Below are positions 4,745 through 5,572 of a DNA stretch of 64,000 bases, in pieces. A program made the translations under genes and the position numbers. The DNA is from Escherichia phage LYE-01: the sequence record PQ303785.1, one strand, 5' to 3'. Each line of letters begins with the position of its first letter. Position 1 is the first letter of the stretch. Under the pieces are notes generated by a model that saw nothing but the letters and a program-made list of their open reading frames with translations, ran no database searches and was not told the DNA's origin.

Positions 4745-4817
4745 TGGGAATTAGCCAAGTTGGTAAGGCATAGCACTTTGACTGCTAGATGCAAAGGTTC
4801 GAGTCCTTTATTCCCAG
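4745..4817 (+). tRNA. tRNA-Gln (anticodon UUG)
   Basis: cloverleaf folded by hand: 7-bp acceptor tgggaat/attccca, anticodon loop CT-TTG-AC, GGTTCGAGTCC T-arm. Confidence 0.85.
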
Positions 4818-4818
4818 C

Positions 4819-4905
4819 GCGAGAATGGTCAAATTGGTAAAGGCACAGCACTTAAAATGCTGCGGAATGATTTCCTTGTGGGTTCGAGTCCCACTTCTCG
4901 CACCA
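4819..4905 (+). tRNA. tRNA-Leu (anticodon UAA)
   Basis: acceptor gcgagaa/ttctcgc, anticodon loop CT-TAA-AA, long variable arm, encoded CCA. Confidence 0.85.
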
Positions 4906-4910
4906 AATTT

Positions 4911-4984
4911 GCGGATATCGTATAATGGCATTACCTCAGACTTCCAATCTGATGATGTGAGTTCGATTCTCATTATCCGCTCCA
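4911..4984 (+). tRNA. tRNA-Gly (anticodon UCC)
   Basis: acceptor gcggata/tatccgc, anticodon loop CT-TCC-AA, GTTCGATTC T-loop. Confidence 0.85.
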
Positions 4985-4994
4985 ATTTAATTTA

Positions 4995-5068
4995 CTCCGT
5001 GTAGCTCAGTTTGGTAGAGCGCCTGATTTGGGATCAGGAGGTCCAAGGTTCAAATCCTTGTATGGAGA
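4995..5068 (+). tRNA. tRNA-Pro (anticodon UGG)
   Basis: anticodon stem cctga/tcagg with loop TT-TGG-GA; GGTTCAAATCC T-arm. Confidence 0.8.
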
Positions 5069-5070
5069 CT

Positions 5071-5160
5071 GGAGGCGTGGCAGAGTGGTTTAATGCACCG
5101 GTCTTGAAAACCGGCAGTCGCTCCGGCGACTCATAGGTTCAAATCCTATCGCCTCCGCCA
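5071..5160 (+). tRNA. tRNA-Ser (anticodon UGA)
   Basis: acceptor ggaggcg/cgcctcc, anticodon loop CT-TGA-AA, long variable arm, encoded CCA. Confidence 0.85.
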
Positions 5161-5165
5161 GTTTT

Positions 5166-5241
5166 GCTGATTTAGCTCAGTAGGTAGAGCAACTCACTTG
5201 TAATGAGAAGGTCGGCGGTTCGATTCCGTCAATCAGCACCA
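5166..5241 (+). tRNA. tRNA-Thr (anticodon UGU)
   Basis: acceptor gctgatt/aatcagc, anticodon loop CT-TGT-AA, encoded CCA. Confidence 0.85.
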
Positions 5242-5242
5242 A

Positions 5243-5317
5243 GGCCCTGTAGCTGGAAGGTTCAAGCAAGCGACTCATAATCGCCAGATGGTGGTTCAAT
5301 TCCACCCAGGGCCACCA
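5243..5317 (+). tRNA. tRNA-Ile (anticodon CAU, presumably lysidine-modified)
   Basis: acceptor ggccctg/cagggcc, anticodon loop CT-CAT-AA; T4 tRNA-Ile carries CAU. Confidence 0.75.
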
Positions 5318-5326
5318 AATTAATTT

Positions 5327-5413
5327 GGGGAGTTATCCCGTAGAGGTAGCGGTGTGGACTGTAAATCCATTGTCATTGCGACTCGGGTGGTTCGACTCCA
5401 TCACTCCCCACCA
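5327..5413 (+). tRNA. tRNA-Tyr-like (anticodon GUA), class II with long variable arm
   Basis: acceptor ggggagt/actcccc, anticodon stem gtgga/tccat with loop CT-GTA-AA, variable-arm hairpin gtc-attgc-gac resembling bacterial tRNA-Tyr, TTCGACT T-loop, CCA; D-stem imperfect. Confidence 0.6.
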
Positions 5414-5417
5414 ATTT

Positions 5418-5492
5418 GGATGTGTAGCTCAATGGCAGAGCGATCGCCTGTTAAGCGATTGGTTATAGGTTCGAATCCTATCACGTCCGCCA
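5418..5492 (+). tRNA. tRNA-Asn (anticodon GUU)
   Basis: acceptor ggatgtg/cacgtcc, D-stem gctc/gagc, anticodon stem atcgc/gcgat with loop CT-GTT-AA, T-arm atagg-ttcgaat-cctat, CCA. Confidence 0.8.
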
Positions 5493-5496
5493 AATC

Positions 5497-5572
5497 CGAG
5501 GCATAGCTCAGAAGGAAGAGCAAGGACCTTCTAAGTCCTAGGTCGTAGGTTCGATCCCTACTGCCTCGACCA
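5497..5572 (+). tRNA. tRNA-Arg (anticodon UCU)
   Basis: acceptor cgaggca/tgcctcg, anticodon stem aggac/gtcct with loop CT-TCT-AA, CCA. Confidence 0.85.

Follow-up and report, generated by a model that had tools for sequence, protein, structure and literature searches.

We analysed a 64,000-nucleotide (nt) stretch of DNA from Escherichia phage LYE-01 (PQ303785.1), referred to below as the window, and examined the tRNA gene array that lies near its start. ARAGORN identified exactly ten tRNA genes in the window, all on the plus strand between positions 4745 and 5572, and no tRNA elsewhere in it. The Rfam tRNA profile RF00005, which describes both the sequence and the structure of the cloverleaf, recovered all ten at or above its gathering score of 29 bits, nine of them at 59-74 bits (E = 1e-10 to 1e-14), whereas the gene for tRNA-Tyr scored 30.2 bits in the scan of the whole window and 35.7 bits when it was searched alone. 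An earlier first-pass annotation, made from the letters alone, had folded ten genes by hand at this place; both programs agree with it on the positions and anticodons of all of them (10/10), and its description of the genes as nearly abutting is borne out by intergenic spacers of 0-10 nt. The terminal CCA is encoded in 8 of the 10 genes, tRNA-Gln and tRNA-Pro being the two that lack it.

The array begins with tRNA-Gln(UUG) (4745..4818; Rfam 66 bits; 74/74 nt identical to T4), followed by the class II tRNA-Leu(UAA) (4819..4905; 87/87 to T4, T2 and T6), tRNA-Gly(UCC) (4911..4984; 73/74 to T4), tRNA-Pro(UGG) (4995..5069; 75/75 to T4 and T2), the class II tRNA-Ser(UGA) (5071..5160; 90/90 to T2 and 87/91 to T4, with a CCA that is encoded in the window and in T2 but not in T4) and tRNA-Thr(UGU) (5166..5241; 73/76 to T4), in which the 3' side of the anticodon arm carries U39 G40 A41. 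The second part of the array consists of a tRNA gene with a CAU anticodon (5243..5317; 75/75 to T2, 47/77 to the tRNA-Ile of T4), a phage-type tRNA-Tyr(GUA) (5327..5413; 86/87 to T2, 85/87 to T6), tRNA-Asn(GUU) (5418..5492; 75/75 to T2) and tRNA-Arg(UCU) (5497..5572; 75/76 to T2, 38/76 to T4 and T6); the CAU and Arg genes are T2-type alleles. ARAGORN labels the CAU gene Met. Because its best matches in E. coli are chromosomal genes annotated as tRNA-Ile (81.6% identity over the full length, 75/75 nt), Ile, which was also the first-pass assignment, is the more apt label. To judge from these matches, the gene most likely encodes a tRNA-Ile2 of the lysidine type that resembles ileX and ileY, not metT, and its annotation should be changed from Met to Ile.

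The genes for tRNA-Tyr and tRNA-Asn are intact, conserved and equipped with the expected identity marks. In tRNA-Tyr these are the GUA anticodon, the G1-C72 pair, A73 and a long variable arm, all of which are identity elements for TyrRS; the variable arm, which had been recognized as class II from the start, has a GUC/GAC stem and an AUUGC loop. tRNA-Asn has the GUU anticodon and G73, and its Rfam score is the highest of the array (74.1 bits). The first-pass annotation had named two results that would tell against this pair, namely rejection by prediction software and identity to genes already annotated in T4: the software accepts both, and neither is identical to any T4 gene. The word isoacceptors in that annotation is a slip, since Tyr and Asn are added isotypes.

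Relation of the locus to T-even tRNA operons

The array together with its surroundings (1.7 kb) has matches in 1059 phage records, most of which belong to Tequatrovirus phages that infect Escherichia, Shigella or Yersinia; the best identity is ~97%. At least 80% of the block formed by tRNA-Tyr and tRNA-Asn is covered in each of 435 phage records, and phage P922 has a copy with 100% identity. Sequence comparison thus indicates that the genes are near-identical to annotated T2 genes and to those of hundreds of records, and that the array was known before: hundreds of genomes have it annotated, the version in T2L was described in 2008 (PMC2330249), and a defence role for the tRNA-Tyr of T6 was reported in 2026 (PMC13096335).

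We compared the gene order in the window (Gln-Leu-Gly-Pro-Ser-Thr-Ile-Tyr-Asn-Arg-ORF116-rnaD-rnaC, where ORF116 denotes an open reading frame (ORF) for 116 amino acids) to those of several relatives. Phage vB_EcoM_Nami carries the same ten tRNA genes in the same order, followed by ORF116, and the ten-gene order is also found in EcNP1. T2 (LC348380; Gln-Leu-Gly-Pro-Ser-[ORF]-Ile-Tyr-Asn-Arg-ORF116) shares the block from Ile(CAU) through Tyr, Asn and Arg to ORF116, with 100% identity in Asn and Ile and a single difference in each of Arg and Tyr, and has no segB, but contains an extra ORF where the window, like T4, has tRNA-Thr. In T4 (Gln-Leu-Gly-Pro-Ser-Thr-Ile-segB-Arg-rnaD-rnaC), the first six genes, from Gln to Thr, are 96-100% identical to those of the window, and the promoter-like site, rnaC and the terminator described below are the same. 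However, segB takes the place of Tyr and Asn in T4, the Ile and Arg alleles are deeply divergent, and ORF116 is absent, so that Arg abuts rnaD; T4 thus has eight tRNA genes with neither Tyr nor Asn, as the first-pass annotation had said. The order in T6 is Gln-Leu-Gly-Thr-Ile-Tyr-segB-Arg: its tRNA-Tyr differs from that of the window at 2 of 87 nt and shares with it the variable arm and the 4-nt link between the acceptor and D stems, but it is followed by segB, and tRNA-Asn is missing. In contrast, a tblastn search of the 64 kb with T4 SegB revealed no homologue in the window (nothing better than E = 0.38), so that SegB-driven tandem amplification of the kind seen in T6 would be unavailable in cis. 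The locus is thus a T-even tRNA operon in its T2-type, segB-less form, and we consider this explanation, with tRNA-Tyr and tRNA-Asn probably serving both codon supply and survival of host defence, highly probable as a whole.

The distribution of segB bears directly on the presence of these two genes. T2L, RB1 and RB3 lack segB, and genes for Tyr, Asn and Arg were shown to be present in T2L (Brok-Volchanskaya et al. 2008, PMC2330249); the preferred 27-bp SegB site is located inside the tRNA-Asn gene of T2L, and SegB homing replaces ~1250 bp, a segment with the genes for Met(Ile), Tyr, Asn and Arg (PMC2330249). The window shares its tRNA-Asn gene, at 100% identity, with T2 (LC348380); the SegB site was mapped in T2L, for which identity is inferred. 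Whether a T-even phage carries Tyr with Asn, Tyr with segB or segB alone would, under the mechanism that we propose, be set by SegB homing with its preferred cut inside Asn, and the locus is predicted to be vulnerable to such homing in mixed infections. The location of the SegB site and the extent of the replaced segment could also be taken to mean that tRNA-Tyr and tRNA-Asn are present mainly as a by-product of a selfish element, in an allele that segB has yet to invade, and bring no particular benefit. The mosaic of presence and absence that T4, T6, T2 and the window form around segB fits this explanation, as does the existence of two deeply divergent alleles of each of Ile and Arg. We nevertheless regard it as improbable, given that conservation of the Tyr-Asn block is high across hundreds of genomes, that the tRNA-Tyr family, often beside tRNA-Asn, recurs in unrelated phages and on ~110-kb E. 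coli plasmids, and that some of these loci have no segB-like gene within the few kb inspected.

Two further differences among the relatives concern the gene content of the operon. Many close relatives have ~190 extra bases between Asn and Arg (5493-5496 in the window vs. 3894-4087 in the ZN18 locus L001); the insert comprises a tRNA-His(GUG) gene and a 114-nt stretch without an annotated gene (L001 3894-4007). Some relatives list a tRNA-Lys as well, and the window has neither tRNA-His nor tRNA-Lys. In T6, the annotated tRNA-Thr (L004 2648-2722) is not detected by ARAGORN. The 5' end of this gene (TCCGTGTAGC...) is similar to the beginning of tRNA-Pro, an indication that Pro and Thr were fused by the deletion that took Pro and Ser out of T6.

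The D arm of the phage-type tRNA-Tyr

The first-pass annotation described the D stem of tRNA-Tyr as imperfect. Canonical tRNAs have two nucleotides between the acceptor and D stems (PMC7609411), and when ARAGORN applies this 2-nt link to the gene in the window, it draws a D stem of U-G, C-G, a C-C mismatch and C-G. In an alternative register with a 4-nt link, UAUC (U8 A9 U C), the gene forms a perfect D stem, CCGU/GCGG, that closes a 7-nt loop, AGAGGUA. The imperfection therefore results from forcing the canonical link and is an artefact of the register; the gene departs from the canonical two nucleotides (8 and 9) between the acceptor and D stems of bacterial, class II tRNA-Tyr. When aligned to the Rfam tRNA model with Infernal, the gene has an insertion, 'uc', that follows position 9, and none of its pairs is marked as non-standard. 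The minimum-energy fold of the gene contains no cloverleaf (z = -1.3), and free folding is uninformative about its structure, so we compared the energies of explicit cloverleafs instead: -27.5 kcal/mol with the 4-nt link, -20.8 kcal/mol in the canonical register and -22.9 kcal/mol without any D stem, that is, an advantage of 6.7 kcal/mol for the 4-nt link over the canonical register.

We further compared the two registers among homologues, which were gathered with a pattern for the anticodon loop and the T loop that leaves the D arm unconstrained. Among 106 distinct phage tRNA-Tyr sequences, 31 need a link of 4 or 5 nt to form all four pairs of the D stem and 35 form them with the canonical link; the motif UA-NN(N)-CYGU...GCRG is common to nearly all of the sequences that are nearest to the gene in the window outside the D arm. 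Nineteen sequences could be aligned without gaps. Among them, pairing in the canonical D stem amounts to 50%, and one of its pairs forms in no sequence, whereas pairing in the shifted D stem reaches 96%, and 4/4 of its pairs show compensatory double changes. Five of the 19 aligned sequences came from a list that had been selected for a good shifted register; the evidence from Infernal, from the energies and from the homologue counts is independent of this selection. On the strength of the pairing frequencies, the Infernal insertion and the energies, we rejected the canonical register for this gene, and the pattern of substitutions suggests that the shifted D stem is under selection.

The same observations bear on the possibility that the gene has decayed into a pseudogene or acts as a decoy that does not decode. 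Its Rfam score in the whole-window scan lies barely above the gathering score, ARAGORN draws the C-C mismatch, the minimum-energy fold is not a cloverleaf, the counterparts in ZN18 and Mt1B1_P17 are annotated as 'tRNA-OTHER' and 'tRNA-Pseudo-GTA', respectively, and the tRNA-Tyr of T6 has been reported to be relatively unstable (PMC13096335). However, the 4-nt link yields a perfect D stem that covaries across many phage families, in agreement with Infernal and with the energies; the gene retains intact acceptor, anticodon and T stems together with A73 and CCA; and experiments on relatives speak for function, in that the rescue by the tRNA-Tyr of the T5-like phage SP15 depends on the anticodon (PMC11555353) and the tRNA-Tyr of T6 is expressed and seen by Northern blot (Chihara et al. 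2026, PMC13096335). We rejected the pseudogene on the covariation, the explicit energies and the Infernal alignment, and consider it very improbable; the odd register explains the two labels, and the gene should not be annotated as a pseudogene.

The phage-type tRNA-Tyr appears, from the sequences compared, to be a phage-borne family in which an insertion of 2-3 nt after position 9 gives a link of 4-5 nt. Members are found at identities of ~95% in rV5-like phages, ~87% in FelixO1-like phages and ~85% in the T5-like phage BF23, and the family is also present in phi92-like phages, Karamvirus and T4-like phages of Klebsiella. In the BF23 homologue, the variable arm is identical and the D arm is likewise shifted, its stem being a compensatory CUG/CAG. 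Among complete E. coli genomes, the family occurs only on ~110-kb plasmids (269 genomes, 94% identity); blastn gave no match to the gene on E. coli chromosomes, and only 2 of 185,579 representative genomes of bacteria and archaea contain the motif that combines the D arm and the anticodon. Bacterial chromosomes are thus essentially free of the family. The tRNA-Asn gene, in turn, gave no match to the host tRNA-Asn. Recent capture of the two genes from the host was rejected on the lack of chromosomal matches and on their global identities to the K-12 genes, 54/87 between tRNA-Tyr and tyrT and 47/76 between tRNA-Asn and asnT.

A 2020 review of non-canonical tRNAs does not include the tRNA-Tyr case (PMC7609411), and no earlier description of the 4-nt link was found there or in the rest of the literature searched, which is weak negative evidence. 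The 4-nt link of this family may thus be the sole element of the locus that is under-described. A functional role for it is possible; more specifically, and quite tentatively, the conserved insertion of 2-3 nt could reshape the geometry of the elbow and the variable arm and in this way alter recognition by defence nucleases specific for tRNA-Tyr while keeping charging by TyrRS. This is a small point, but a non-canonical link in a functional and widespread phage tRNA may merit a structural look.

On the E. coli plasmid pEC881_2 (109 kb; L138 3921-4747), an Asn-Tyr-Thr-Ser cluster that includes the phage-type tRNA-Tyr lies near genes for a DNA ligase and an integrase, and the isotypes Asn, Tyr and Thr are targets of the Septu, retron-Eco7 and PARIS nucleases. 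Phages Roth20 (Klebsiella; L009 1678-1762), Mt1B1_P17 (L010 1601-1686) and CW742 (Enterobacter; L011 2331-2415) encode an 85-86-nt tRNA-Asn(GUU) with a long, class-II-like variable arm, which is unusual for tRNA-Asn. Each of these genes lies no more than ~750 nt from a phage-type tRNA-Tyr, and their anticodon arms, GCGGA (Mt1B1_P17 and CW742) or ACGGA (Roth20) followed by CUGUUAA UCCGU, are equal or nearly equal to that of the E. coli tRNA-Asn.

Codon supply and defence nucleases

The roles of tRNA-Tyr and tRNA-Asn are most likely two, which are not mutually exclusive: codon supply and survival of host defence, the latter by analogy with close relatives. We compared codon usage in 74 long ORFs of the window to that in 52 ORFs from a 50-kb region of E. 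coli K-12. Relative to the host sample, the window uses Tyr codons 1.77 times and Asn codons 1.45 times as often (3.0 times for UAU and 3.0 times for AAU); for the A-ending codons of the other eight tRNAs the factor is 1.3-3.3. tRNA-Tyr and tRNA-Asn would thus raise the supply of tRNAs for codons that are far more common in the A+T-rich phage than in its host. Codons for Lys (1.77 times) and Phe (1.24 times) are over-used as well, yet the array contains no tRNA for either.

For tRNA-Tyr, a part in counter-defence has already been published for relatives, and its extension to the window is by analogy. Host tRNA-Tyr is cut by PtuAB of Septu and of retron-Eco7 (PMC13096335, PMC12673091). Septu cuts both the host tRNA-Tyr and that of T6 at C48 in the variable arm; growth of T6 is restored by overexpression of its tRNA-Tyr or by SegB-driven tandem amplification, a T6 deletion without the tRNA-rich region is more sensitive to Septu, and T4, which has no tRNA-Tyr, cannot escape (PMC13096335). 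The tRNA-Tyr of SP15 rescues phage from retron-Eco7 in a manner that depends on the anticodon and on promoter strength (PMC11555353), and its variable arm, described as 5 nt longer than that of E. coli, is of importance (PMC12673091). The rescues by the tRNA-Tyr of T6 and, dependent on the anticodon, by that of SP15 give indirect support to the prediction that the tRNA-Tyr of the window is charged with tyrosine by host TyrRS. More generally, the Tyr, Asn, Thr and Lys tRNAs of T5-like phages counter retron-Eco7 and PARIS (PMC11555353, PMC12673091, PMC12409363). The cautious suggestion in the first-pass annotation that the added tRNAs may reflect counter-defence is therefore supported by published experiments on close relatives, namely the tRNA-Tyr of T6, 2 nt different from that of the window, and that of T5-like phages. 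The T5-like phages differ from the window in that they belong to another phage family and have these tRNAs scattered among ~20 others, and in that the window has no tRNA-Lys. Equating the variable arm of the window gene with that of SP15 and T5 was considered and dropped: it is only 2 nt longer than the arm in E. coli and matches that of BF23.

The case for tRNA-Asn concerns a different nuclease. AriB, the nuclease of PARIS, cuts tRNA-Asn(GUU) as well as tRNA-Thr(UGU), and a change of U39 abolishes its cleavage of tRNA-Lys (PMC12409363). The tRNA-Asn of the window reads U-A-A-G39-C40-G41 where that of E. coli reads U36-A-A-U39-C40-C41, and on account of G39 and G41 in place of the host's U39 and C41, it is predicted to be resistant to AriB; G39 is also present in the tRNA-Asn of BF23 and of one FelixO1-like phage. 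Similarly, tRNA-Thr in the window has G40 where C40 is reported for the tRNA-Thr(UGU) of E. coli (PMC12409363). Counter-defence by tRNA-Asn against PARIS is thus plausible, by analogy.

Under the proposed mechanism, tRNA-Tyr and tRNA-Asn would keep translation going when a defence nuclease destroys the matching host tRNA. For tRNA-Tyr, the nucleases would be the PtuAB effector of Septu and retron-Eco7, which would be countered mainly by extra supply; for tRNA-Asn and tRNA-Thr, the nuclease would be AriB, countered by substitutions in the cleavage motif. Some observations weigh against a protective role. The anticodon loop of tRNA-Tyr and the stem of its variable arm equal those of the host, with the GUC stem at the cut site unchanged and a difference only in the variable loop (AUUGC vs. 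AUC), so that no obvious escape mutation is present at the published cut site. The tRNA-Tyr of T6 is itself cut by Septu and relatively unstable (PMC13096335), which suggests that one gene copy may protect little. Finally, the array has no tRNA-Lys, the main target of PARIS, and tRNA-Asn and tRNA-Thr alone should not defeat this system; because tRNA-Lys is missing, the phage should remain sensitive to PARIS, as T4 is (PMC12409363).

Codon supply fits the presence of tRNA-Tyr and tRNA-Asn equally well as counter-defence; the two roles are compatible, and computation cannot separate them. A stricter alternative holds that the two genes provide codon and amino-acid supply only and have no part against defence nucleases. 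The over-use of Tyr and Asn codons, and of UAU and AAU in particular, agrees with it, as do the enrichment of the A-ending codons read by all eight classic tRNAs and the identity of the tRNA-Tyr anticodon loop to that of the host. We consider this alternative rather unlikely, because the tRNA-Tyr of T6 rescues growth under Septu and loss of the T6 tRNA region increases sensitivity to it (PMC13096335), tRNA-Asn and its host counterpart differ within the AriB motif, at positions 39 and 41, T4 grows well with neither gene, and the over-used Lys and Phe codons have no tRNA in the array. The T2-type, segB-less status of the locus predicts better survival than that of T4 on hosts with Septu or retron-Eco7.

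Transcription and neighbouring features

The ten tRNAs, ORF116, rnaD and rnaC would form one transcript, a proposal that draws on the anatomy of the locus and on knowledge of T4. Transcription would start at a middle-promoter-like site on the plus strand ~70 nt upstream of tRNA-Gln (4651..4675), which consists of a MotA-box-like TGCTTTA (4651-4657), a 12-nt spacer and TATTAT (4670-4675). This site agrees with the consensus of T4 middle promoters and does not vary among T4, T2, T6, ZN18 and Nami, despite the divergence of the upstream gene in T2. We infer from the sequence that it acts as a T4-type middle promoter. Against this stand the fact that the assignment is based solely on the consensus match and the result of a generic sigma-70 promoter scan, in which sites were no more numerous than in shuffled sequence. 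The transcript would end at an intrinsic-terminator-like hairpin followed by a run of T after rnaC (6246..6279, plus strand, with the strong hairpin itself at 6246-6269; 10-bp stem with 7 G-C pairs and a TTTTT tail), which is conserved in T4, ZN18 and Nami and, as judged by sequence, is likely to be the end of the unit of tRNAs and stable RNAs. Host enzymes would process the transcript, with RNase P making the 5' ends; tRNA-Gln and tRNA-Pro would need trimming at the 3' end and addition of CCA because none is encoded, and host TilS would convert the CAU tRNA into a reader of AUA.

ORF116 (5589..5939, plus strand; 116 amino acids) lies between tRNA-Arg and the stable RNAs. Its only match in a search for a Pfam-type function was phrog_3355 (E = 2.4e-53), a PHROG of unknown function. 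T2, ZN18 and Nami have the equivalent ORF in the corresponding place, with the annotation hypothetical protein; it is absent from this position in T4. Downstream, blastn identified homologues of the two stable RNAs of T4 on the plus strand: rnaD ('species 2'; 5939..6050) at 78% identity and rnaC ('species 1'; 6057..6195) at 98.6% identity over 139/139 nt. No Rfam family matched the rnaD/rnaC region in the window scan, and Rfam holds none for rnaC or rnaD.

The central segment of the rnaD homologue (~5977-6027) is unrelated to that of T4, whereas both ends are conserved; the version in Nami is T4-like and that in ZN18 is like that of the window. Between the promoter-like site and tRNA-Gln, a hairpin at 4699-4717 (ACCCT-CTATCATCA-AGGGT, then TCTTATTT) is invariant in T4, T2, T6, ZN18 and Nami, and may be a processing or attenuation signal. 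The anticodon arm of tRNA-Gln(UUG) (4770-4790) occurs as two alleles among near-identical phages, one in the window and T4 (stem UAGCA/UGCUA, loop CUUUGAC) and the other in ZN18 and Nami (stem CUGGA/UCCAG, loop UUUUGAU). The stems are fully compensated, the alleles differ at positions 32 and 38, and the remainder of the gene is the same.

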